Shown here: positions 5,901-20,454 of the stretch, one piece after another | How the letters are laid out: every line of letters begins with the position of its first letter | Position numbering within the stretch: position 1 is the stretch's first letter | DNA from: Giardia intestinalis | Lineage: Eukaryota | Length of the DNA: 64,000 nt | Reading direction: 5' to 3' (one strand) | NCBI GenBank assembly: GCA_000002435.2 | Contig: CM018793.1 | Translations under genes and position numbers: made by a program | The notes under the pieces: model-generated | Databases searched by the model: none | Seen by the model: the letters and a program-made list of their open reading frames with translations, nothing else | What the model was told of the DNA's origin: nothing

Positions 5901-6075
5901 TGTGGAGGGAGTGCCACAACTCCGGAGACAACTCCAGCAGCAGCCCCGTCCTCGACAATCCTCAGGTGCAAGTGGTACTCCCCAGGCAGCTAACCAGAGA
6001 GAAAGAAATCCTGATGAGCTGAAGGGGTTACAGCTGCAAGGGCTGCCGATGCTTGGAGCACGTCAGAAAAGCTAG
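2905..6075 (+). CDS. kinesin motor protein (N-terminal motor, long C-terminal coiled coil)
   Basis: P-loop GQTGAGKSYT, switch I SSRSHSIF, switch II DLAGSER, and 'HVPYRDSKLTRLLQDSLGG' neck-proximal motif. Track start 2827 is TTG. The first in-frame ATG is 2905 (MDSSIGRVRVILRIRPL...), preceded by an AT-rich initiator. The coiled-coil-rich tail runs to the TAG at 6073-6075. Confidence 0.9.
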   Translation: MDSSIGRVRVILRIRPLVRAELMDGGGVSVQARGSSIFLQNDTSYMFDSVLGPESSQEDVSAEVLNGLLAPFIQGYNCTAFAYGQTGAGKSYTIGVPNQTSLSYVEACLGEANKESHAGADVSDVDVDPQTKFASVGLIPRFIVQLFDALASIQSVWKVRVSFLEVYNETLRDLLSPETDSSSLCIRDYKGKVVVQNLTEREVSSAKDAARCFVNGGILRVTAVTAMNERSSRSHSIFTVTLERVQDNKKFLSKFSFVDLAGSERAKKSGATGLQFKEMVGINSGLLALGNVISALAANQDSREKRHVPYRDSKLTRLLQDSLGGSSTTIMIANISPFIGNFDETNSTILYAARARNIINVPVACHEELNLGQAQDQVRQLIKELEKENLTMKADLDRVRKQRDDLRGEIEILEAQLLERNARLITMAKGAALEPSTQQALGSNQLDNLGNLSVNAGVKEIPEVVRELVRSNCIAIEQEFGTFYAPKKIQTIRLLLDLLTDYICKTYPVDNSNYNDVFKALVNQNVISSLKSANARSSTGTGGKAAGPSFTKKKASSSKQLLTNEHNSAMFSDTVVATLIDALLLLRKAGSAPLNKRKKQPRKSSRAALREHSKLDNQQGNTEAPSTNGVLSEQLSKESVIFTNTSSSTSLLKVSMLDKSTSSDVSPVNVSEFLDRSLYEHNNKGEGDEEQQDVYDLAYRDIVDNTRNVPEGSAALTAIKDLIKRLISKEACPEEIYHSTVTAMMALQKQQEHILELEGQMTYIQQKVQGKTCDENVIELRTRIKTLEEEHRVALEELRTKEQVQLAMNQVQARFQSMIERYKKEIIEKTRACEEANRLLKSQRMNQSFNETPIKPKRPGSNRLSMGQMHAHRRVQSNTEHAFAMIDSGYAPAVHAKHAHHLSSVNMTDCRPKSKKDIGQSHQKLGNRDTKLAELDRKLEDLQSLYAYNAKNEEVLRNRVEELEAERDSLASEKLSLQKRLSQLEQDIKMRVVSPVRASVEGVPQLRRQLQQQPRPRQSSGASGTPQAANQRERNPDELKGLQLQGLPMLGARQKS

Positions 6076-8138
6076 GGTTGTGAATCGCCCTCATACGTCC
6101 CCGAGAATAAATATTTAACAGCCCTCTTCAGGCGCTTGAGGAACCCTTGTGGGGGGCCAGGTGAGTCTCGGGAGGAATGGAAATGCTCATTCTCATACTG
6201 AAGCCTGCTATATGCATTCAGGCTTCGGCACACTGTACTCTGAGAACGCGGGGTAATTCTTCTGCTCCCGGGAGTCTCTGGACAGTTTGGTGTGCGGGGA
6301 GAAATAGCCTCAGTTTCATCCTCTGAGTTGTCGAGGCCCATGATACTGAAGTTTTTACTAGAACGACCCGATGTTCTGGCCTTTAGCTCAGCTACCTCAA
6401 CCTGCAGGGCCGAGATGCTTCTCTTGTTGCTACTTCTTTCCTCATCGATCTTAGAGCTGATCTGGTTACATCTCTGCTCGAGGGCCTTCAGGCATGTTCT
6501 ACTGTTCTCCTTAAACTTTTCAAAGTCTCCCGATATTCCTCTGATGTTCTTTTGAACAGAGCGAAGGTTGTACCCCAGAGCAGTCACCTGAGACTCGTTT
6601 TGCTCGAGTAATTGTCTAGTGGCCTCCCACAACTCATCTTTACTGGGCTTCCCTTCTGCTTCTCCACGAGGCAGATTGAGCACCTCACCCAACATACCAA
6701 CGAGCTCCTCAATTCGGTGCTCCTGATTGGATAAAAAATCAGAGATAGTGTCTATGCGCTGTGAAAGTCGCAGGATCGTTTCTTGAATCTCGTACTGACT
6801 AGTTGTGTCATGCTGATAAATACTGTTTTTATTCTTTGTTCTAATTGCATACCCTGGACCAGTTGATCTACCAGGTGCATCAGTGACCGGCTTTGGGGCA
6901 GTTTGGAGATTGGTCACTGACATGGCCGTTGAGTGTACGCGCGACTCACTGTTGAGTGGTGGCTTTTTCAACTGAGAAGTGAGGCTAGTTTCTAAAGAAT
7001 TGTTATAGAACTCCATCAGCTCTTTTAGCTCGCTATCGAATGTGTTGCCCGCCACCTTTGTGTGTTCGAGCTCTTCAATGACCATATGACTATCCCGCAG
7101 TTCGTTGGCGACCGGCGCAGGTGTCATTGCAGGAGTTTTCAAGGAGTTGTTGATAGTACAATCGGAAGGTATCTTCCTAGTAGCAGCTATCATGGATGCG
7201 CTCCCTGACAGCCTAAAGCGCTGTTGGTGGAATCGTGTAATCTCGTCAACCACCTTTGTAAGCCCTAGTGCCCTGGCAAGCTCGAGGGGTGTCTGACCCT
7301 GTTTGTTCTGCAGGGCCTCCTCTGCTTCTATCAGAATGATAGCAGATTCTGCATGATAATTCTGGATTGCTAGTAGGAGTGCTGTGTTGTGGTTATTGTC
7401 CCGATGTCCCGACTCATAGGCTAGTAGTGCTTCAGTTGTCTGTGTACGACCAGAGTAGGCAGCATACATTAGTGCTGTGTGACCTTGGGCATCCTGCAAA
7501 CCTGCCTCTACAGAAATGAGGAGTTTCACCATCTCGACATGCCCGGCCGCGGCCGCAATCATCAACGCTGATCGCCCTGTGACGCTCCTCATGCCTGCCT
7601 CTTGTGAGACGAGCATTTTCCCGCATTGCCACTTGCCGGTCTGTGCAGCAAACATGAGGGCTGTCATCCCACTGTTATCCGTCAAGGATGCCTCCTTGTG
7701 TCGCGCCATATCGACAAGCTCAGTCCACCCTAGGCGGCTCGCTATCATCAGAGCGGTTGCACCGTCCTTTCCTTGCATTCCCGCCTCCGCCTCCAAAAGG
7801 AGCCGAAAGCAGCCGATACTCCGCCTATATACCGAGCTCATCAGAGCTGTCTGTCCACCAGCGTCCTGCATGCACCTTTCGTACGGAAGGAGAAAGGATA
7901 CGATGGCCTCTTGGTTGTTGTAGGCAGCAAACATAAGGGCTGTCTCTCCTGTGTTCACCTGCATTCGCTGCTCCTTTTCTACCAGCAGCCTTACACACTC
8001 AAGATGCCCAGCGCTGGCGGCGAACATCAGGGCAGTCTGGCCGTTTGCGTCGGCTAGCCCCACATAAAGGTGCAAAAGCGCACGCACATCGGCCTCCCTA
8101 CCCTCAAAGGCAGCGACCATCAGCTCGGTTTTACTCAT
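6072..8138 (-). CDS. ankyrin-repeat protein, Giardia 'Protein 21.1'-like, with C-terminal coiled coil
   Basis: 688 aa. There are about 12 tandem ankyrin repeats with the TALM signature (GQTALMFAASAGH, GETALMFAAYNN, GMTALMFAAQTG, GHTALMYAAYSG), followed by a coiled-coil/Ser-rich tail. ATG confirmed at 8138..8136 (complement). Confidence 0.85.
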   Translation of the reverse strand: MSKTELMVAAFEGREADVRALLHLYVGLADANGQTALMFAASAGHLECVRLLVEKEQRMQVNTGETALMFAAYNNQEAIVSFLLPYERCMQDAGGQTALMSSVYRRSIGCFRLLLEAEAGMQGKDGATALMIASRLGWTELVDMARHKEASLTDNSGMTALMFAAQTGKWQCGKMLVSQEAGMRSVTGRSALMIAAAAGHVEMVKLLISVEAGLQDAQGHTALMYAAYSGRTQTTEALLAYESGHRDNNHNTALLLAIQNYHAESAIILIEAEEALQNKQGQTPLELARALGLTKVVDEITRFHQQRFRLSGSASMIAATRKIPSDCTINNSLKTPAMTPAPVANELRDSHMVIEELEHTKVAGNTFDSELKELMEFYNNSLETSLTSQLKKPPLNSESRVHSTAMSVTNLQTAPKPVTDAPGRSTGPGYAIRTKNKNSIYQHDTTSQYEIQETILRLSQRIDTISDFLSNQEHRIEELVGMLGEVLNLPRGEAEGKPSKDELWEATRQLLEQNESQVTALGYNLRSVQKNIRGISGDFEKFKENSRTCLKALEQRCNQISSKIDEERSSNKRSISALQVEVAELKARTSGRSSKNFSIMGLDNSEDETEAISPRTPNCPETPGSRRITPRSQSTVCRSLNAYSRLQYENEHFHSSRDSPGPPQGFLKRLKRAVKYLFSGTYEGDSQP

Positions 8139-10808: not shown

Positions 10809-11504
10809 CTAAGCCGTAGAGAATATGTTGGAGTGCATAGATGGAGCAAATATCAAGAACAGGCGCCGGAACCACACGTCTTGCGACGCGTACGTCATTA
10901 GAAACAGGGATCTCAGCTGGCAGGGGGCTCTTGAGGTTATTCTCACCTGATCCATCCTAACCTTGTAGAGCCACGGCATAAGCCACGCAAGCCGAGGAGG
11001 TGTTTGCAGGAAGTAGCACTTTGCACGAATCCGGCCTGCCAGCACCGCCTTCCCTATCTGGCAATGGTTTATGTGGCCTGTGACACCTTCGCTGTCAAAG
11101 GTGTAAACGGTAATGGCATCACCCATTGCCATGTCCATTCCGTACAAGATTATTTGTAGAAGTCGTTCGCTCCACGGTGTATAGGGATCATCGAGAAGAG
11201 GCGTCCGAAGATAGTGAGTCCTGATGGCTGAGAACCTTCTTGATAAGGATGCGAGCTCGGAGGTACGGAGAGCCCCCTGCCTTGGGTCTTGTCTGCTTCC
11301 TCCTTGGAGCTCTGCAGATTCTCTCCAGCCGCCAGATGTCAAGCAGAGAATGAGCGTGGGAACCTCATGCTCCTCCATGTGCTGCAGTAGAGGCCCGAAG
11401 AAGAGCAGCTCATCATCGGGGTGCGCTGTCAGGACAATCACCCGAGTTCCGGAGTACTGCTCTAGCTGAGACACAACACTGAACAGTAAGTTAGTAAATG
11501 TCAC
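10809..11504 (-). CDS. N-acetylglucosaminyl-phosphatidylinositol de-N-acetylase (PIG-L / LmbE family), GPI-anchor biosynthesis
   Basis: 'RVIVLTAHPDDELLFFGP' (HPDDE metal-binding motif) and 'GVTGHINH' (HxxH motif) are diagnostic of the PIG-L/LmbE family. The 5' end is unresolved: the codon at 11504 is GTG and there is no in-frame ATG upstream of the HPDDE motif before a stop (see findings). Confidence 0.75.
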   Translation of the reverse strand: MTFTNLLFSVVSQLEQYSGTRVIVLTAHPDDELLFFGPLLQHMEEHEVPTLILCLTSGGWRESAELQGGSRQDPRQGALRTSELASLSRRFSAIRTHYLRTPLLDDPYTPWSERLLQIILYGMDMAMGDAITVYTFDSEGVTGHINHCQIGKAVLAGRIRAKCYFLQTPPRLAWLMPWLYKVRMDQVRITSRAPCQLRSLFLMTYASQDVWFRRLFLIFAPSMHSNIFSTA

Positions 11505-11560
11505 GATCTTTTGTTTAAGACGCTTTACTCGACCACGTAATAGACGTCTACATTCAGAAA

Positions 11561-11875
11561 ATGTTCTGGCTGCTTATTTTTGCAGTGGCCGTGCTTGCAT
11601 ACAGACCGTCAGATAGGAAAAGGGACACGTATTCAGCTGTTCTACGCAGCCCCAAGCCATGCGGCTTGAAAGACTACGAGGGGCTTCTAACCTTCATGAA
11701 GTCTCCCGAGCGCGACCTGTACGATCTTACTATCGAGTACGGCTATACCACGCCTGTGCTGCTATTCTTAGACGTCAATGAACAGGAACTAGGCCGTGTT
11801 TACATCGACAAGAGCCACACGCCTGTGGCAATTCAGGCGTTGCTGGATGAAGCTGATATCCCGGTTCGCAGGTAA
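11561..11875 (+). CDS. hypothetical small secreted protein (N-terminal signal-peptide-like segment)
   Basis: 104 aa, true ATG at 11561. 'MFWLLIFAVAVLAYRP' is signal-peptide-like. It fills the gap between PIG-L and the zinc-finger gene. No recognised domain. Confidence 0.4.
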   Translation: MFWLLIFAVAVLAYRPSDRKRDTYSAVLRSPKPCGLKDYEGLLTFMKSPERDLYDLTIEYGYTTPVLLFLDVNEQELGRVYIDKSHTPVAIQALLDEADIPVRR

Positions 11876-11881
11876 AGATGG

Positions 11882-12262
11882 TCAAGGGGGCTCCAAGTGA
11901 ACACAGATTTCTGTTCCAGCAGTTTCATAAACCCCGTTGCCGTAGTAGATTCCGTAGTCTTCTGCACGTTGGCCAACAAAGGGCACGGGTGTTAGGAGTT
12001 CCTTACCCGATTTCCCTGCCCTTATAGGCCATGGATTGGCCCACAGATGCCCGTATTTTTCCCGCAACTTCTGCACGTGCTCGTCGCTTTTGTAGTGACC
12101 CTGTTGCGCCTTCTTGGATCCAAAGGATACTCCACAAACAGTGCACGAGACCAATGGAATAACCTGGGAAACATGCATCTCTGCCATCTCCGGATGTAAA
12201 GGCGTCACTGATTTCGTCACTAGCAGTGACGACGCGGACGATGAGGCGCTAGGCTCTATCAT
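11882..12262 (-). CDS. U1-type C2H2 zinc-finger protein, ZNF593/Bud20-like (pre-60S export factor family)
   Basis: 'CTVCGVSFGSKKAQQGHYKSDEHVQKLREK' matches the ZNF593/Bud20 finger '[30 protein letters not shown]' (C-x2-C-x3-F...H-[YF]-[KR]-S-x2-H). ATG at 12262 (complement) is confirmed, but internal Met codons at 12187 and 12178 are alternative starts. The 12188-12262 stretch overlaps the opposite-strand ankyrin reading frame. Confidence 0.6.
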   Translation of the reverse strand: MIEPSASSSASSLLVTKSVTPLHPEMAEMHVSQVIPLVSCTVCGVSFGSKKAQQGHYKSDEHVQKLREKYGHLWANPWPIRAGKSGKELLTPVPFVGQRAEDYGIYYGNGVYETAGTEICVHLEPP

Positions 12263-12383
12263 TAAAAAGTGTAGGCAAGTGGACGACTTTTTTCGCGCTA
12301 TTCGTGCCGGAGACTATGAAACAGTCTCCAGGCTTGTACTACAGTATGGAGCTTGCACCGATGCTAACGGACACACTCCCTTG

Positions 12384-14240
12384 ATGTGTGCTATGGCTTC
12401 AAAGCAGGAGGACCTTCTTCCTGTGCTGATTCCGTCGTCATCGGGCATGGCAACCGAGAATGGGGAATACGCCATCACACTGGCTGCTGAACTGGAGTTT
12501 CTTCCTGGAGTTCTCGCTGTACTCCCGTACGAGCATCACTATCGCAACCGAGACGGAGATTCGGCCCTTCACATACTTGCTCGAAAAGGGATTGTCGACA
12601 TCATTCCTCAGTGTGCACAGTACTTGGAGCGAGCAAGGGATGCTACTGGACGTATTCCTATCGACGTTGCAGCAGAGCATAACAGTGTTGCATTTCTCAA
12701 GGCCTCGATAGAGAATAAGCTGGGCTTGACGGCGGACGATGTTTTGCGCACGTTCTGTGCGGCACGACATGCAGGTAGACAAGAGGCCATGGATTGTCTT
12801 CGTGAATACATTTTCGTGGAGCCTGTTGAATGCCTCTGCTATCGTTGTAGCAACGTTCTGGACTTTCCTTCTAATAGTTCCAGCAGGCTAGGGACACCAA
12901 TAGTATCGAGATACAGCTCCATATGTCGCACGCCTTTGTCGTTCAAGTCCATTCGAAGCCTGGGGTCTCTTTCTGCAGAAAGGAGGCCAAGCTTGCGCAG
13001 TCCCTGTCTTTCCCCGCGGCTATCTAATTCAGTGGAGACGACATCCATCGGCATACAGGTTTCTACCGCTTGTCAAAACTGTACTGAAAGTGCACAGATA
13101 TATGAGCAGCAGATTGCTGAGCTAAACGACAGATTGTCAGCCCTGACTGCACAACTAAACACATTTTCTCAAAGATCGCCACAGGTAAGCACGACCCTAC
13201 CTCATTGCACAGAGTCAAATTCTGGTTTTAGTGAAAGGAGACAAAAACAGAGAGACATAGTGGAAGCGGCTGCTCTATCCTTCTCGCCCCTACAAGAAGC
13301 CTCGAAGGCACAAACAAGAGAGCTAATTTCTGTGGTTACGCCAACAGTGAACAGAATCACAGATGACCCGCATCCCAGCGTCCCAAGTAGTCCCTTGCCT
13401 TCTTCCTCTCTATGTTCAAGCCAAGGGTCCAACCCAACAGTCCTCAGATTTTCGGGCTTTCGCGGGATCACCGAACTTGCTCTGTCGAAGGTGGGATCTC
13501 TCAAGAACAGCTCTCCGCATTTAGAGGACATGGGATCCCTGTATGAGGCCCCTGACATGCATACCAATATGACCGACCTTATGCGAGCAGCATGCAGCGG
13601 GAACGTAGGACTTGTGGGAAAGCTTATCGCTACCCAGTCGCGACACCAGACGGAGTCAGGCTACACGGCGCTAATGTTTGCATGCAGAATAGGAAACTTG
13701 GCAGCAGCTAAAATGCTTCTGCCCTACGAAGCAGGGATGCAGACGAAAACAGGATCAACGGCATTGATGGAGGCATGTGCAAGCGGAAGCAAGGAGCTTG
13801 CAACTCTATTGCTCATTGAGGGAGGCATCTATCGTAAGGATGGGTGGTCTGCTCTCATGAGTGCTGCTCGAGCAGGACTTCCCGACATTGTCCGCTGCCT
13901 TCTTCCAGTCGAGAGCGGTAGGGCTACTTTGGGCGGAGTAACCGCCCTTATGAAAGCCGTAGAGCAGGGACACTATTCGTGTATTTCAATGCTCATTCCA
14001 TCGGAAATTCACTTTCGAAGAAAGGATGGGCGAACGGCAATAGACATCGCCCGTGAACTGAATAATACAGGCATAATTGGCCTGTTGGAGGACTACATCA
14101 ACAACCATCCAGTCAGCCTTTCAGATCATCAGACAACAACTGAAAGGGATAGCAACCAGCTGACCAGTAGCGAGATGGAACTCCTTGCAGATATCGATGA
14201 GTATATAATCATGGGTGACGGCGCTTCCGACAAGTGTTAG
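12384..14240 (+). CDS. ankyrin-repeat protein, 'Protein 21.1'-like
   Basis: Many TALM-type repeats (GHTPLMCAMAS, ESGYTALMFACRIG, GSTALMEACASG, GWSALMSAARAG, GVTALMKAVEQG). Track start 12114 is TTG. The first in-frame ATG is 12384, yet ankyrin-like sequence (DDFFRAIRAGDYETVSRLVLQYGACTDANGHTPLM) continues upstream of it, so the true 5' end is uncertain. Confidence 0.75.
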   Translation: MCAMASKQEDLLPVLIPSSSGMATENGEYAITLAAELEFLPGVLAVLPYEHHYRNRDGDSALHILARKGIVDIIPQCAQYLERARDATGRIPIDVAAEHNSVAFLKASIENKLGLTADDVLRTFCAARHAGRQEAMDCLREYIFVEPVECLCYRCSNVLDFPSNSSSRLGTPIVSRYSSICRTPLSFKSIRSLGSLSAERRPSLRSPCLSPRLSNSVETTSIGIQVSTACQNCTESAQIYEQQIAELNDRLSALTAQLNTFSQRSPQVSTTLPHCTESNSGFSERRQKQRDIVEAAALSFSPLQEASKAQTRELISVVTPTVNRITDDPHPSVPSSPLPSSSLCSSQGSNPTVLRFSGFRGITELALSKVGSLKNSSPHLEDMGSLYEAPDMHTNMTDLMRAACSGNVGLVGKLIATQSRHQTESGYTALMFACRIGNLAAAKMLLPYEAGMQTKTGSTALMEACASGSKELATLLLIEGGIYRKDGWSALMSAARAGLPDIVRCLLPVESGRATLGGVTALMKAVEQGHYSCISMLIPSEIHFRRKDGRTAIDIARELNNTGIIGLLEDYINNHPVSLSDHQTTTERDSNQLTSSEMELLADIDEYIIMGDGASDKC

Positions 14241-17200
14241 GTAAACAAAGGCGGAGGCCCCAACTTAGGAATGTCCTTCAGGGACGTTATGATGCTGTCT
14301 AGCGTCTCATTGGAGAGTGCACACGGCACCGGGGTGATTTCTTTTTCGAGACGCTCTTCATGCTCTCCTCTCATAACGGGGGACGATTCTTTGCTGGCAT
14401 GGTGCTTTTCGATCACCTGCTTGACATCTAAGCTCAGGCTGTCCATGAGGGCTACTAACGTGTTAGTGTCAACGCCAGACATTGCAGAACCGAACTCTAT
14501 GGGACGCGTGATGTTCTCTGAGACCCTGACGTCGGAAGAGCCTTCAATGTGGCTCACATCCTTATTCAGTGTATCAAGCTTACCGAGCTCATGGCTGCTC
14601 TTGGATATCTGAATAATCACCGGGGTCTCAGACCCTTCAGATGCGGAAGAAGCGGACAAATTATCTTTATATGACGACAGTTCTGGTGTAACGCTAGTAT
14701 TCGGAGCCTGCCTTTCTGCCAGGCTGGCCGAAATGCACTCAATAAACGTTGATCGCTTTGACGACGGACTCTTTGCAGCTGGTGGGGGTGGAGGAAGGGC
14801 ATGTTTCTTGATTGTTGCGATAGATTTGGGAATGCCTCCCGGGCCTGAAATCGATGAGGCTCGGTGAGATCTTCTATCTGATAAGTGTGCTTTCGCGTCC
14901 TCAACGGTTGCTTCTTCAACTACGGCATTTGGCGTTGCACACGGAACTGGAGTTGAGCCAACCTCAGAGGTACAGGACGAAGAATCATGCGGTTCTGCAG
15001 AGATTTCTGGGTGTGGTCCACGGTTAGAAATGACATTGGTATTAATAATATCATCCAGCTTAAAGGCATCGTCCTCGTGCTGGTCTTGGATTCCAGCCTT
15101 GACGTCATGCACACTTAAAGCGTGCGGTTGTCTGGTGAAAAATTCATCCTCTGCTGTTTCGTAGGTAGATGCGTTGGATTCTGATTTTGGGACATTCAAT
15201 AGCGTAGAGATCAGCCGACTAGGAACCTGCTGGTGCGATGTAATAAGAGAGGGGCTGTGTTTTTCTGTAATCCTCCCGAACTGGCTGCTTGTCTCACCAC
15301 TAGTCTCAGAAAACCGACTTTGATTCTCGTTCTCTTCATGCAATGCTTTTAGTATCTTGCTTGAGTGTCTATAATGATCGGGATTATCAACGCCAATGTT
15401 GCCTTTAACTTTAGTGGACACATATGTGTCAGAGAACTTCCCTGCAGTGAAAACATCATCCACAAGTGAGGATCGAACAGTAACTCCCTGCTCAGTGCCT
15501 GTTACAGTGGGTACTGCGAAGCTGTAATTGCCGTACTTCCTAAGAAAAGCCCTAACTCTCGGAATATATGCGTTGATTGACAGGTTGCTTTCTGCATTTC
15601 CGAGGATAATGTTTTCGAATTTGACGTTAACTTGTAGATATCTAAGATTATTGTCCATGACGAATCCATACCTAAGTGATTCCTGCAGCATCTCAGTGAA
15701 TGCAACTGTTTGCAACGGAGACAGGTTGATTGCCTCCATGTTAATTTCGTGATCTTGCTCTGTTACCGAGCCTGGCGATGGATGCTGTACTGGCGAGGAA
15801 CAAGAATTGAAACTGGTTAGTGACGTCTCTGCAAGCACACCGGTACCTCGTCGCGGCTGCATAAGTGTAAGCATCAGTGCCACAAGGGCAACAGAGGACA
15901 TACGGGAGACTTCTGCATTTGTTTCTGAGAAGTAGTATGCAGTAAGCTTCCCTTTGTACGGAATCGCAGAAACGGCCTGCTCCCCTTCGGTGTCTTTGGT
16001 GTACACCCCAATGTATCCGTTTTGCTCCGGAAACCGCTCGTAGTCTGTATCAAATGTCGATGTCTCTGGATTGAATAGTATTTTGGAGCCAAGGAGGCCG
16101 AAGAACATGAGGCGTAGCTCGTAAAGACTCTCAAGTACTGACTCACAGATCTTTATTGCCACTTTGCGGTGAATGATGTGGAGGATGCTGTCACTGTCAT
16201 CCTTTGTATTGTCGATAAAACGAAGCGTTCTGTCGTTGTCTTCCCGCGCTTTTAGGGTGGCTTGAATAGCTAATTCTAAGGTGTTGTTCATGTATGACGG
16301 AAACAGCTCGGCAACAAATGCAGAAGAAAACGGAATTGCTCCTGTTTCCGTAAGGTCAGGGGAGTAAAGAATCTCCGGCACACGGACGTTGTAATCGCAC
16401 CTAATCACCTCCAGGATCCAAGCCGTTATGTCTAGTAGGTCGGCGAGCTGAAGCCTGAAGTTAGGAAGGGAGATGCCAAAGTCGGCCTTGAGGGTCTGTA
16501 TTTGTGAAAACTTGGAGGAGACCATGAAAACAGTTGGGTTTTTGGTATGCGCCATCTGCACTTGTTGCATAGCGGTTTTTTCGCAAGTGTTGTGTGCGTA
16601 ACGTAAGCAGTAAGCAGCATTGATGCCAAATCCCTTGTAAGAAAGGGTATCTCTTTTCCCCATAAATACCATGCCAACTCCGTCAGAAAGCTTGTCAGCC
16701 TGCAGCATATGAGAAATAAGCTTGCATTTGATCTTATTCGAATGCAATCTAGATACCTGTGCCAGAGAGGTAGAGGTCGACAGGATACTATAAGATTGTG
16801 AGGTGCACGTCTCACTTTTGGAGTTTGCATACGTGAGGTCAGAGTCCAGAGATCTGGCGATAATCAAGGCGTACCTCAATAAGTCTGTTCCTCGCTTCTG
16901 TGTTCCGGCGAGAGAAGCGTTCTGAGATGCAATCGTGACCAGGCTACTCCCATAACAATCACACAGTTGCATCATGAGAGATGCAAAGTTTATTTCTAGT
17001 GGCACCAAACCGGTTCCAATCATCGGGTCAAAATGCTGTGCAAAGGAGCCTGTTGTTTTCAGAAGGCCTGTGTCTGTGGCCTGTGTGCCGTGCACTCTCT
17101 TTAAGTTGTCTATTTCACGCAATCGTCTGACATCGTTGGCAACATTTACGAGCAGATTGTGGGGAAGGTCCACCAGCTTAGTTGTTTGATTAGTCACATA

Positions 17201-19918
17201 GAAGTCGCAGAAGGAATGAACGGACTTGACGAGAATCTCGTGGGCTAGAAGCGAGTTTAGTTGTTGGATGGTGTCGTCAATGGTGATCCTTAATGTGCTG
17301 TCGCACTGGTCAATCTTATGGAATACCTTAGATAGAGTATTATTGTCCCCGGTAGCCAAGAGGATATAGGGATTACAAAGGATAATAAGAAGAGCGCGAC
17401 AAAAAGTCAGCTTGTCCATGGCACAGAGAGACGTAAAGTCCGTCTGCCCCCTACTCGCCGACGCCATCAGCTCTAAGTCAAGGGCTTCGGACAAATCGAT
17501 TATGTAACGAGAAATTGCGTCTGTAACAGTACTCGCGTTAAGAGGCTCATTAGACCGTATATCGTGAAGCAATAACACGACATGGGTAATCAGAAACTCC
17601 CGTGTATTGCGGCAGAGAAGAGTCACGTTTGGCGAATTGATAGACTGCAAAAGAAGCAGGACGTCTTGACGACGATACAGAGAATAGATTGTGTTGGGCG
17701 CGACGTATGTCTCATACTCTTGCATTAGTTTGTAATGACTATCTTCCGAATACTGGTCAGTAACTTCAAAAAGGCTGACTAGGCAATCGAGAAACGTGAG
17801 GTACGTGCATGCGCTTACTAAGCTTAGCTCCTTGTCAGTAGAGAACAGCTTTAGCGATGCACTGCTTGAGTACAGGGCCAGAAGGTTGGCGTTCATGCGT
17901 GAAGTGCGCTGGCTTTGGGCCAAGGAACTTGAGGCGGCAGCTTTCGTCTTGAATGATGCGGAATGCCCGAGACTCGTCACCGGATCTTCGTGTGCACACT
18001 GTGCTGCATAGAGAGCAGTGGACATAGCATTATAGCCAGAACTAAGCAAGATGATGTCGCTGGAAATTGGTCGCGGAACCGTAGAAGTGCCCTCCGACAG
18101 GGTCCCTGAAAAGCTGGGCTTGATGTCGATGAAAATATACACGTCCCGGAGAAAATCTAGTGAATTGGACATGAAACAATTGGTCAGCTTTGTTAAGATA
18201 ACCTCTTCCAATGGAGCAGCATCAGAAGAAACGTACTCTGCAACAATCTGAAGTAGTGATTGAAAGTTGGAATAGTCTAGAGTGTTTCCAACGGCAATGC
18301 AGAATATGCCAAACGTTGCTGCCGCGTAGACGGGAATGGTCGGGAAATATGTAACTGGTGTTATTATGTTCTGCACCAGGGGAATAAAGAATGTGGCCAT
18401 AAGCGTCTTGCGTCTTCCTGGCAGCCCGGAGCTGGAGGACAGCTTCATGGTCTGTGTGTTAGATGCCTCAAACTGCAGAGCATTGTACTCCAGAAGCGCT
18501 GCATCGATCAGTGTCTGCCTAAAGAACGAGGGGGAATACACTAAAAACAAGAGTATAATGCGCAAGTATGCGCCTACTATTTCATTATAATCATTCATGG
18601 GCATACTGCTGCAAGATTCCAAGCCTGCAGTCTTCGTGTCCAGATAGGAATAGAAGAACGAGGCTAAAGACCGAAACATTCGAACACTGTAAATAACGGA
18701 GAGGTAATCTACGATCGCCTGCTCTTCCTGAACCGAGAAAAGTGGTAGACGGTTTTCGAGAGGGCCATGGCTCTCCAAAATGGAGAATGGCACCCGCGTA
18801 TATGCTTCTATCCGCCTCTCTCCGCAGTGCAGGAAGAATATGCTAAGCAGCCTGACCGTTATAACATCTGGTTGGTAGATGATGGAGCTGTCGCCAGCCA
18901 TTGTACGCGAAGTGTCCGCAGATAGGTGTAGACTGAATGGAGACCGTGTGGATGCAGCAGACAAAAACGCTTTGGTGTCTCTGCCACCCAACAGGTTCGT
19001 CACAAGGTAGTCGTCCATAACTAGTCGGGTAAATATCTTGTCCTGGTGTCGAAGAAGAGCGTTGTATTGGGCCAGCGCCTTATCTACTTGTTCGCCGCTA
19101 TCGAGAATCGCCTTTGCAATGGATTGCTTGAAGGTATGGAGCCGCTCCAATAAATCACTGAGCAATCCCAAGGTTGCTAAACGTGTGCTAGCAGAGCTGG
19201 AAACAGGACACTGTGCAGGAGGAGACAAGACTCTTTCAAACAAAAAGTCAGGCACCTGCGTCGAAAGAAAGAGCAAGAACTCGTCTGTTGAAAAGCTAGT
19301 CGTTGTATAGAGAGCCAAAATCTCTAACATCTCGTTCAGTGCGTCAGGGTTACCGGTGCATGTATGCAAATACGTCGTGAGGAGAGAAGCCGATTCATAC
19401 GTCTCTCTGAATAGGCAAACAATCCCAAAGCGGACCTGAACAAAGTGCCGTAGGAACTGAACTGCGTAGTTTGTCAGCTGGGTACTGCCTGCCCGCGGCT
19501 CAGACATGGCCTTTGCAAGCTCCTCCATGCCACCGAGAGCCACAAAGCTCTTCAAAAGACATGTCTGGACCCTAACATAGGAGGTGCTTTCCCCACTGGA
19601 AATACCCTTAAGGAGCTGTGTCATGGTTCCTAGAGCGAGACATTTGAACCGAACCGTCGTCTCGTTAATGGGCTTTAAATCTATTCTGAAAAGATCCAAC
19701 AAGAGGGCGACCAGCCCAGACGAGATTAGTACATCAAGCCTATCACTTAATGGGATTGCGTTTGAGGCAGCGACAGCGTCTTGCAAAAGAGACTGACAGA
19801 TACTGCTTGAGGTATCGATGAACGCCGTCGAGCTGTACGTCCCCGAGAGGACCTCCTTTACTTGTGCGACAATGATGGGAATGGCCATCTTCCACTTAAT
19901 TATGGGATTTGGCGCCAT
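14237..19918 (-). CDS. large hypothetical protein (~1894 aa), predominantly alpha-helical/ARM-HEAT-like with Ser-rich low-complexity C-terminal region
   Basis: Continuous ORF. Track start 19960 is TTG. The first ATG is 19918..19916 (complement), giving MAPNPIIKWKMAIPIIV..., preceded by the AT-rich 'catttaaaatc'. The C-terminal third is Ser/Pro-rich (PPPPPAAKSPSS). No catalytic motifs recognised. Confidence 0.6.
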   Translation of the reverse strand: MAPNPIIKWKMAIPIIVAQVKEVLSGTYSSTAFIDTSSSICQSLLQDAVAASNAIPLSDRLDVLISSGLVALLLDLFRIDLKPINETTVRFKCLALGTMTQLLKGISSGESTSYVRVQTCLLKSFVALGGMEELAKAMSEPRAGSTQLTNYAVQFLRHFVQVRFGIVCLFRETYESASLLTTYLHTCTGNPDALNEMLEILALYTTTSFSTDEFLLFLSTQVPDFLFERVLSPPAQCPVSSSASTRLATLGLLSDLLERLHTFKQSIAKAILDSGEQVDKALAQYNALLRHQDKIFTRLVMDDYLVTNLLGGRDTKAFLSAASTRSPFSLHLSADTSRTMAGDSSIIYQPDVITVRLLSIFFLHCGERRIEAYTRVPFSILESHGPLENRLPLFSVQEEQAIVDYLSVIYSVRMFRSLASFFYSYLDTKTAGLESCSSMPMNDYNEIVGAYLRIILLFLVYSPSFFRQTLIDAALLEYNALQFEASNTQTMKLSSSSGLPGRRKTLMATFFIPLVQNIITPVTYFPTIPVYAAATFGIFCIAVGNTLDYSNFQSLLQIVAEYVSSDAAPLEEVILTKLTNCFMSNSLDFLRDVYIFIDIKPSFSGTLSEGTSTVPRPISSDIILLSSGYNAMSTALYAAQCAHEDPVTSLGHSASFKTKAAASSSLAQSQRTSRMNANLLALYSSSASLKLFSTDKELSLVSACTYLTFLDCLVSLFEVTDQYSEDSHYKLMQEYETYVAPNTIYSLYRRQDVLLLLQSINSPNVTLLCRNTREFLITHVVLLLHDIRSNEPLNASTVTDAISRYIIDLSEALDLELMASASRGQTDFTSLCAMDKLTFCRALLIILCNPYILLATGDNNTLSKVFHKIDQCDSTLRITIDDTIQQLNSLLAHEILVKSVHSFCDFYVTNQTTKLVDLPHNLLVNVANDVRRLREIDNLKRVHGTQATDTGLLKTTGSFAQHFDPMIGTGLVPLEINFASLMMQLCDCYGSSLVTIASQNASLAGTQKRGTDLLRYALIIARSLDSDLTYANSKSETCTSQSYSILSTSTSLAQVSRLHSNKIKCKLISHMLQADKLSDGVGMVFMGKRDTLSYKGFGINAAYCLRYAHNTCEKTAMQQVQMAHTKNPTVFMVSSKFSQIQTLKADFGISLPNFRLQLADLLDITAWILEVIRCDYNVRVPEILYSPDLTETGAIPFSSAFVAELFPSYMNNTLELAIQATLKAREDNDRTLRFIDNTKDDSDSILHIIHRKVAIKICESVLESLYELRLMFFGLLGSKILFNPETSTFDTDYERFPEQNGYIGVYTKDTEGEQAVSAIPYKGKLTAYYFSETNAEVSRMSSVALVALMLTLMQPRRGTGVLAETSLTSFNSCSSPVQHPSPGSVTEQDHEINMEAINLSPLQTVAFTEMLQESLRYGFVMDNNLRYLQVNVKFENIILGNAESNLSINAYIPRVRAFLRKYGNYSFAVPTVTGTEQGVTVRSSLVDDVFTAGKFSDTYVSTKVKGNIGVDNPDHYRHSSKILKALHEENENQSRFSETSGETSSQFGRITEKHSPSLITSHQQVPSRLISTLLNVPKSESNASTYETAEDEFFTRQPHALSVHDVKAGIQDQHEDDAFKLDDIINTNVISNRGPHPEISAEPHDSSSCTSEVGSTPVPCATPNAVVEEATVEDAKAHLSDRRSHRASSISGPGGIPKSIATIKKHALPPPPPAAKSPSSKRSTFIECISASLAERQAPNTSVTPELSSYKDNLSASSASEGSETPVIIQISKSSHELGKLDTLNKDVSHIEGSSDVRVSENITRPIEFGSAMSGVDTNTLVALMDSLSLDVKQVIEKHHASKESSPVMRGEHEERLEKEITPVPCALSNETLDSIITSLKDIPKLGPPPLFT

Positions 19919-20454
19919 GCATGATTTTAAATGCAAATATGAACTGAAAATTGGAAGCAAGGGGCTTGGCTCGTAGGATCTTACCTTTCACACGTTTGTA
20001 TGGTAATGTTCTACTTACTTATTGACACTCCACATACAGCTGGGCTCTGCACTAACACTCTGAGTAATAAGTAAGAACGAAAATAGTGCAACAATAAGTT
20101 TATTTCAATCATGCAGTTTTGTCCAATGTAATCAATCTTGAACTACTTCAGCTTTCTCACCACTAAAGACCACTAAAGGCTAGTTGTTTCTGCTGAGGCC
20201 TTCCCCGAACGACAGTTTGTTTGTGCGTTTACAAGCAACATAAGCGCCAGCTAGAGTTTAAGGAAGCTTCCAAATTGCAGTGATCATCTTGCTAGTGCAT
20301 GAACTGATGAGTGTGAGGACGCGTTCACACACCCCGTAGAATAGGAACATGCTTATCTCTGAGGCGGAATCCCTATAGTCGACACAGCGGTCGGGACTGT
20401 AGTGCTATCTGGGATGCAAATTCTATATGGTCTAAACTTATTATACTCATAGTG

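Follow-up and report, generated by a model that had tools for sequence, protein, structure and literature searches.

A GTG codon beside a putative bidirectional initiator as the candidate start of an ankyrin-repeat gene in Giardia intestinalis

The locus considered here raises the question of where a gene begins when its reading frame is open long before its first ATG. In a 64,000-nucleotide (nt) stretch of Giardia intestinalis assemblage A (hereafter the window; contig CM018793.1 of assembly GCA_000002435.2, GC content 49.6%), the plus-strand frame of an ankyrin-repeat gene of the protein 21.1 family is stop-free from a stop before position 12099 through 14240 (position mod 3 = 0). Its first TTG lies at 12114 and its only in-frame ATGs are at 12384, 12393 and 12447; three out-of-frame ATGs (12316, 12346 and 12361) precede 12384. 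The initial annotation correctly recorded that the frame is open from 12114 and lacks an in-frame ATG until 12384, and it proposed that the ankyrin coding sequence extends about 90 codons upstream of that ATG, across an antisense zinc-finger gene. Comparison with related lineages leads us to a start between these two positions. The gene probably begins at the GTG codon at 12279, rather than at ATG 12384 or at 12114, next to an initiator that it would share with its divergent neighbour; that initiation uses some non-AUG codon within 12279-12305 appears likelier still. The main features are as follows.

12279..14240, plus strand: revised ankyrin coding sequence (protein 21.1 family, 'Ankyrin repeat protein 1'), 653 codons plus stop
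12279..12281, plus strand: GTG, proposed non-AUG start, present in all five lineages compared and the first in-frame codon they share after a TAA in L002 and L003
12384..12386, plus strand: first in-frame ATG, codon 36 of the revised coding sequence; taken as the start in the annotations of WB (618 aa), P15 and assemblage B

A start at ATG 12384 gives a protein of 618 aa, exactly XP_001707561.1, annotated in WB as 'Ankyrin repeat protein 1'. The 90%-identity cluster of the open reading frame (ORF) holds this protein together with the P15 'Protein 21.1' (619 aa) and the DH protein ESU39193.1 (708 aa). With 95 ATG-less open codons before its first ATG, the ankyrin ORF has the longest such stretch among about 36 long ORFs in the window; the next longest among ORFs with a Pfam domain match, 65 codons, belongs to the nearby PIG-L gene. 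A sequencing or assembly error was rejected as the cause, because the WB and DH references and many assemblies from Logan and ENA carry the identical sequence.

The window was compared with the DNA of five related loci.

L001, from ENA: assemblage B
L002, from run ERR3333380: divergent G. intestinalis, 77-80% protein identity
L003, from run ERR3333379: divergent G. intestinalis, 77-80% protein identity
L025, from Logan: E/P15-like
L004, from NCBI: G. muris

L002 and L003 probably represent a dog assemblage (C or D). Throughout, 'five lineages' refers to A (the window), B, E-like, L002 and L003, and G. muris is treated separately. A metagenome scan for more Giardia orthologues returned 20 loci, all of them generic ankyrin proteins with 28-38% identity.

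Coding sequence ahead of the first ATG

The revised coding sequence matches the Pfam family Ank_2 (E = 5e-41) and has orthologues in assemblages B and E-like, in the two further lineages and in G. muris. Its 35 codons ahead of ATG 12384 (12279-12383) are evidently translated, as indicated by codon-position variation, homology with G. muris, a paralogue and a structural model. Across the five lineages, the variable columns in codons 10-35 (12306-12383) numbered 6, 4 and 19 at codon positions 1, 2 and 3, respectively (chi-square p = 0.001). The pairwise ratio of nonsynonymous to synonymous differences (pN/pS) was 0.09-0.24 in this segment versus 0.14-0.29 just past ATG 12384, and neither a stop nor an indel was found there in any of the five. 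The proposal that the gene is 5'-truncated and its first repeat a decaying remnant was accordingly rejected, since the segment is constrained as the downstream sequence is and has remained intact. The gene shows protein-coding constraint in frame upstream of its first in-frame AUG, as expected of a gene with a non-AUG start.

In G. muris, the orthologue opens with an ordinary ATG six codons ahead of the equivalent repeat (MTQASSDVLFAAIR), and its aligned residues are SDVLFAAIRTGDCQRV. Comparison with paralogues, which had been suggested as a check, agreed with this picture: the paralogue at 8138..6072 of the window (minus strand) begins with an ATG and 4 aa, after which comes the same repeat type. 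The initial annotation had allowed for the upstream repeat being unconserved in orthologues; it is instead conserved in the five lineages and in G. muris. In the AlphaFold model of the ORF from 12114, confident helices at residues 57-65 and 68-78 (predicted local distance difference test score, pLDDT, 86-96) are followed by a helix beginning TPLMCAM, and the two are modelled as an N-terminal capping repeat packed ahead of it. Counted from the proposed start, the protein has multiple ankyrin repeats with a capping repeat directly after its first residues, as expected of the 21.1 family. Peptides encoded upstream of ATG 12384 include AGDYETVSR and LVLQYGACTDANGHTPLMCAMASK.

ATG 12384 falls within TPLM, a motif that opens a helix of the second ankyrin repeat in the model. 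A start there would delete the capping repeat and cut repeat 2. The initial annotation had put this ATG inside the first repeat; the model puts it in repeat 2. As a separate observation, the annotation of KWX11331.1, from an assemblage B isolate, begins MMCAIASK where other B sequences read PLMCAIASK (aligned to window positions 12381-12386), a difference at the codon preceding the annotated start that points to either an allele with Met for Leu (ATG for CTG) or an artefact of annotation.

The part of the open frame upstream of 12279 behaves differently, and its properties follow from the neighbouring gene on the other strand.

12114..12278, plus strand: upstream part of the open frame, a by-product consisting of the antisense of the zinc-finger coding sequence plus a 16-nt spacer
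11882..12262, minus strand: C2H2 zinc-finger gene (126 aa), the divergent neighbour, whose ATG adjoins an AT-rich box (CTTTTTAATG)

Several observations favour an extension of about 90 codons (from 12114 or 12141 onward) that truly overlaps the zinc-finger coding sequence, at least in A, B and E: the frame is continuous in A, B and E-like (in assemblage A it includes the peptide stretch GVTDFVTSSDDADDEALGSIIK), the long version is predicted by gene callers of the prokaryotic type and annotated in DH (708 aa), and pN/pS in the upstream frame is 0.29. However, the long version still has no ATG, and in L002 and L003 the spacer has lost 1 nt and a TAA stands in frame two codons ahead of the GTG, which breaks continuity, so that nothing upstream of the GTG can belong to the protein in these two lineages. 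The upstream plus frame also shares its wobble positions with the antisense zinc-finger frame, where pN/pS is 0.23, so the apparent constraint on 12114-12278 mirrors that of the minus-strand frame. The length of the open stretch is unremarkable. In the shared-wobble register, antisense stops require the sense codons TTA, CTA or TCA, which make up 3.4% of the gene codons in the window; chance alone then yields an open stretch of 50-55 codons with P = 0.15-0.18, and the window has 537 such stretches, of which 75 reach at least 50 codons. Moreover, the region lies ahead of the putative transcription start site (TSS), and pLDDT is below 50 for residues 1-39 of the 12114 ORF. We consider such an extension extremely improbable.

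These observations indicate that 12114-12278 is not ankyrin coding sequence and that there is no true sense/antisense coding overlap: two divergent coding sequences lie 16 nt apart (12262 and 12279). Across the proposed overlap, the two frames are not both maintained in related lineages. The mirrored frame, the chance length and the interruption by the TAA and indel identify the 90-codon extension and the overlap as by-products. Ankyrin coding sequence upstream of the first ATG is thus real for 35 codons and not for about 90. Similarly, of the roughly 150 bp said to be read on both strands, the minus-strand ORF from ATG 12262 stands, and the plus frame opposite it is not ankyrin coding.

The start region and its GTG codon

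None of the five lineages (A, E-like, B, L002, L003) has an in-frame ATG ahead of the conserved coding segment, so the expectation of an unconventional start was well founded. The start region has the same architecture in all five: an invariant CATTAAAAAG, 8-9 variable nt, and then GTGGACGAC, the beginning of an invariant block.

12260..12269, no strand assigned: invariant CATTAAAAAG with the AT-rich initiator-type box ATTAAAAAG (12261-12269), a putative bidirectional transcription start
12264..12278, plus strand: predicted ankyrin 5' leader, about 15 nt in A, B and E-like and 14 nt in L002 and L003
12279..12305, plus strand: 27-nt block GTGGACGACTTTTTTCGCGCTATTCGT, codons 1-9 (VDDFFRAIR), invariant in the five lineages
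12309..12329, plus strand: hairpin GGAGAC-N9-GTCTCC, inside the ankyrin coding sequence, 27 nt downstream of the GTG

The commonest consensus variants found by TSS-seq in Giardia are AAATTAAAAAT, AAATTAAAAAA and AAAATAAAAAG, with a central A as the transcription start (PMC3792122). The box core ATTAAAAA at this locus equals the first two of these (AAATTAAAAAT/AAATTAAAAAA; PMC3792122), and the pattern WTTAAAAAK occurs five times in the 64-kb window. From this consensus we infer transcription starts near 12264 on the plus strand and near 12263 on the minus strand. The CAT at 12260-12262 within CATTAAAAAG is the zinc-finger ATG on the minus strand, where the sequence reads CTTTTTAATG, the classical Giardia arrangement of a box followed by an ATG. 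On the ankyrin side, the spacer at 12270-12278 varies in sequence among the lineages and in length by 1 nt. The box lies 10 nt from the GTG; measured from the putative TSS, the GTG is 14-15 nt away and ATG 12384 about 120 nt. An AAAA within 25 nt upstream of the ATG was found in 10 of 23 long genes in the window, compared with 7% of background 25-mers. No A/T-rich element is present within 25 nt upstream of ATG 12384, where the longest A/T run is 3. Between 12279 and 12383, the only near-cognate in-frame codons kept in all five lineages are GTG (codon 1) and ATT (codon 8).

In the mechanism that we propose, transcription would begin within the AT-rich initiator ATTAAAAAG, shared with the divergent zinc-finger gene, whose ATG (12262) lies 1 nt from it on the opposite strand. 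The ankyrin mRNA would carry a leader of about 14-15 nt, and its cap-proximal GUG would be decoded as the initiator, presumably by Met-tRNAi, to give a protein beginning (M)DDFFRAIRAGDYETVSR with a complete capping repeat. Decoding of a cap-proximal codon would follow from the leaders of 1-14 nt and the non-scanning ribosomes reported for Giardia (PMC3610916).

The sequence downstream of the GTG carries constraint beyond that on the protein. Codons 1-9 form the only run of at least four invariant codons in the 650-codon alignment, and third positions are 79% invariant in the first 19-codon window, which ranks first of 635 windows, versus 22.6% gene-wide. The hairpin stem is invariant at four synonymous sites in the five lineages with a variable loop, and its predicted folding energy ranges from -7.4 to -8.8 kcal/mol. 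Positions 12279-12335 thus show the strongest synonymous-site conservation of the whole ankyrin gene, and they correspond to -17 to -73 relative to the zinc-finger ATG. This extra constraint may reflect an mRNA element tied to initiation at a weak codon, or it may reflect a zinc-finger promoter embedded in the ankyrin coding sequence. The mRNA element is weakly favoured, because the reciprocal region (the first 25 zinc-finger codons, where an ankyrin promoter would lie) is unconstrained, with 21 of 25 third positions varying.

The invariant block belongs to no known RNA family, as an Rfam search of 11400-12900 at E up to 1 gave no match. Nor is it a repeated 5' motif of the 21.1 family within the window, since no second copy of the 27-mer was found there. 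Consensus structure prediction around the GTG gave weak AU/GU pairing with z = -1.8 over 81 nt and no covariation; GGAGAC/GTCTCC is the sole clean hairpin near the GTG, and its invariance leaves it uninformative on covariation.

Two other small features of this region were considered. An out-of-frame 'GTG-stop' of two codons lies at 12269-12274 on the plus strand (GTGTAG in the window, GTGTAA in B, E-like and L003, GCGTAA in L002); its first G, at 12269, is the last base of the initiator box, and the feature is probably coincidental. An upstream ORF running from ATG 12316 to a TGATG at 12384, which would permit termination-reinitiation, was rejected because that ATG is ATA in E-like and GTG in L003; its stop at 12384 is a by-product of the Leu codon ahead of the ATG.

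Alternative explanations and known systems

Several points weigh against a start at GTG 12279. Support at the ankyrin locus is entirely comparative. GUG is usually a weak initiator in eukaryotes, and a demonstrated cellular non-AUG start in Giardia was not found in the literature searched, nor were ribosome profiling or proteogenomic N-terminal data for Giardia. A leader of 15 nt is at or just beyond the top of the reported range of 1-14 nt, and the conservation at 12279-12335 may belong to the zinc-finger promoter (-17 to -73) and not to an initiation element. The invariant 27 nt, in addition, give no coding signature within G. intestinalis, so that translation could begin at another codon in 12279-12305, chiefly at ATT 12300 (codon 8), leaving the sequence from GTG to GCT as untranslated leader. 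This ATT is the sole other in-frame near-cognate codon kept in the five lineages. We nevertheless judge it an unlikely start. AUU is generally a poorer initiator than GUG, and residues 57-65 are modelled as the first helix of the capping repeat (pLDDT 86-96). At the aligned positions, G. muris encodes D-V-L-F-A-A-I-R within an ATG-defined ORF, and its D, F and A codons differ synonymously. A start at ATT would also need a leader of about 36 nt, compared with the reported 1-14 nt (PMC3610916).

The existing annotation is about equally doubtful. It begins at ATG 12384 in WB, P15 and assemblage B alike, and would make 12279-12383 a conserved untranslated leader or a zinc-finger promoter; a promoter of that gene is indeed expected at 12279-12335, and a few Giardia genes have long 5' untranslated regions (PMC3792122). 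Yet the 6/4/19 variation and the low pN/pS in the ankyrin frame extend to 12383, well past any 70-bp promoter, and 12279-12383 is homologous to G. muris coding sequence. A start at this ATG would bisect an ankyrin repeat, three out-of-frame ATGs would precede it, and no A/T-rich element is nearby. A third explanation, that an ATG exon located elsewhere is cis- or trans-spliced to an acceptor just before 12279, has a very small chance of being right. AG|GTG is kept in the five lineages, and in Giardia cis-introns occur near 5' ends, some genes are trans-spliced and several Type A introns fall outside annotated genes (PMC10711314). The intron motif of this organism combines a CTRAC branch site fused to a 3' end in ACAG with a GTATGT donor (PMC10711314 and general knowledge). 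Within a kilobase of the start, GTATGT occurs only at 12571-12576, on the minus strand and inside the ankyrin coding sequence, and no lineage has a CTRAC motif or a ACACACAG-type 3' end within the 60 nt ahead of 12279, which makes splicing unlikely; an initiator-type box lies 10 nt upstream of the GTG instead. None of the 42 introns listed in PMC10711314 is assigned to the ankyrin gene when compared by name rather than by coordinates. Two differently numbered 'Ankyrin repeat protein 1' genes in that list have rarely used introns far from their starts (PMC10711314), and the G. muris orthologue needs no intron.

A GTG start would place the ankyrin gene in the known class of conserved eukaryotic genes with non-AUG initiation, in an organism for which no demonstrated cellular case was found in the literature searched. 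In EIF4G2 (NAT1/p97/DAP5), which uses GUG, and in Candida albicans P2A and yeast GRS1 and ALA1, a near-cognate codon is likewise the sole start of a conserved protein (general knowledge and PMC3566956). Those cases and the ankyrin gene are recognised in the same way, by conserved coding sequence upstream of the first AUG together with a conserved near-cognate codon. They differ in that the EIF4G2-type mRNAs are read by scanning 43S complexes, with ordinary leaders and Kozak context, whereas the leader of the ankyrin mRNA would measure about 15 nt, in an organism reported to lack scanning. The GUG starts and leaderless mRNAs of bacteria and archaea also combine a GUG with proximity to the mRNA 5' end; they belong to other domains of life, with other initiation factors, and the similarity goes no further.

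Within Giardia, the closest precedent concerns the DEAH-box helicase GL50803_13200, whose annotated WB protein is missing an N-terminal motif; its 5' region in the genome has no ATG, and alternative initiation codons were suggested (Gargantini et al. 2012, PMC3566956). That is a different gene, mentioned in a one-sentence remark without comparative or experimental follow-up (PMC3566956); the literature searched gave no other hint that cellular genes of Giardia use non-AUG starts. A non-AUG start on Giardia ribosomes has also been proposed for the Giardiavirus capsid (PMC8230311). The capsid differs in being viral and dependent on an internal ribosome entry site, possibly with A-site initiation (PMC8230311), whereas the ankyrin mRNA is cellular and presumably capped, with a short predicted leader. 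The start region itself can be compared with the AT-rich initiators of Giardia, where leaders are very short and transcription may start bidirectionally or back to back (Tolba 2013, PMC3792122; Teodorovic 2007, as cited there): a ATTAAAAA-type box lies between divergent genes here. The zinc-finger gene follows this system, with the classical box and ATG and a predicted leader of about 1 nt. The ankyrin gene departs from it, as a GTG takes the place of the ATG at the expected distance from a predicted TSS.

If the proposed start is correct, the ankyrin annotation of WB, P15 and assemblage B omits 35 residues, and with them the capping repeat, and the apparent sense/antisense overlap gives way to a 16-nt divergent promoter. 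The locus would then be evidence, of a comparative kind, that a conserved protein can have a non-AUG codon as its only start in a eukaryote whose mRNAs are nearly leaderless and for which scanning is not reported. Such a start would have been kept since the Giardia assemblages diverged and would bear on start-codon selection in this organism. A genome-wide screen for conserved coding sequence ahead of the first ATG, beside an A-box, is suggested by these findings.

Neighbouring genes

The PIG-L gene offers a second candidate for a GTG start, 0.8 kb away from the ankyrin start.

11502..11504, minus strand: GTG at the ancestral start of PIG-L (GlcNAc-PI de-N-acetylase); ORF 11504..10809, after a AAACAAAAGATC box

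The initial annotation had described the ankyrin gene as the second missing-start problem in the vicinity of a PIG-L anomaly; the PIG-L anomaly is an ATG to GTG change of the start codon in assemblage A, with the ORF intact. In assemblage B and L003, the codon that follows the AAACAAAAGATC box at this very position is ATG. As annotated in WB, the protein has 189 aa from ATG 11378 and misses the AHPDDE motif, B annotations give 231 aa, and the DH protein is flagged as partial; the peptide stretch concerned is MTFTNLLFSVVSQLEQYSGTR. The change fits with GUG being usable in Giardia, although a recent inactivation of the gene would be an alternative. If GUG is used, the WB protein is 42 residues short and has lost the AHPDDE motif.

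Tentatively, the cap-proximal, non-scanning initiation of Giardia might accept GUG more widely, such that a class of genes uses GUG starts and is now annotated with truncated N termini; at the ankyrin gene, the invariant 27 nt and the hairpin might enable or tune initiation. Candidate members of this rather speculative class would be the ankyrin gene (GTG fixed in the five lineages), PIG-L in assemblage A and possibly the helicase GL50803_13200.

The zinc-finger ATG and an ORF of 124-126 aa are kept in four lineages, with third-position variation at 21 of 25 sites in codons 1-25 and 25 of 32 in codons 26-57. The protein contains one C2H2 finger of the U1/JAZ type, scoring 19.2 bits against zf-C2H2_jaz, below the Pfam cutoff of 22.6. 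Its best sequence matches among solved structures were ZNF622 (E = 4.6e-5) and ZFa, and neither ZNF593 nor Bud20 was among these matches; the label 'ZNF593/Bud20-like' given to this protein was not confirmed, given the single sub-cutoff finger. In G. muris, the gene upstream of the ankyrin gene (L004 2461-2841) is an unrelated 126-aa ORF and not a zinc finger, so the divergent pairing is specific to G. intestinalis.

At its other end, the ankyrin gene overlaps a convergent minus-strand ORF of 1907 aa (14237..19960) by 4 nt (14237-14240, including the ankyrin stop), so that the two lie tail to tail without an intergenic spacer. Between PIG-L and the zinc-finger gene, a 104-aa ORF at 11561-11875 (plus strand) is called as a gene in the B, L002/L003 and E-like loci and has a weak, sub-cutoff match to the Sep15/SelM redox domain (E = 0.058).

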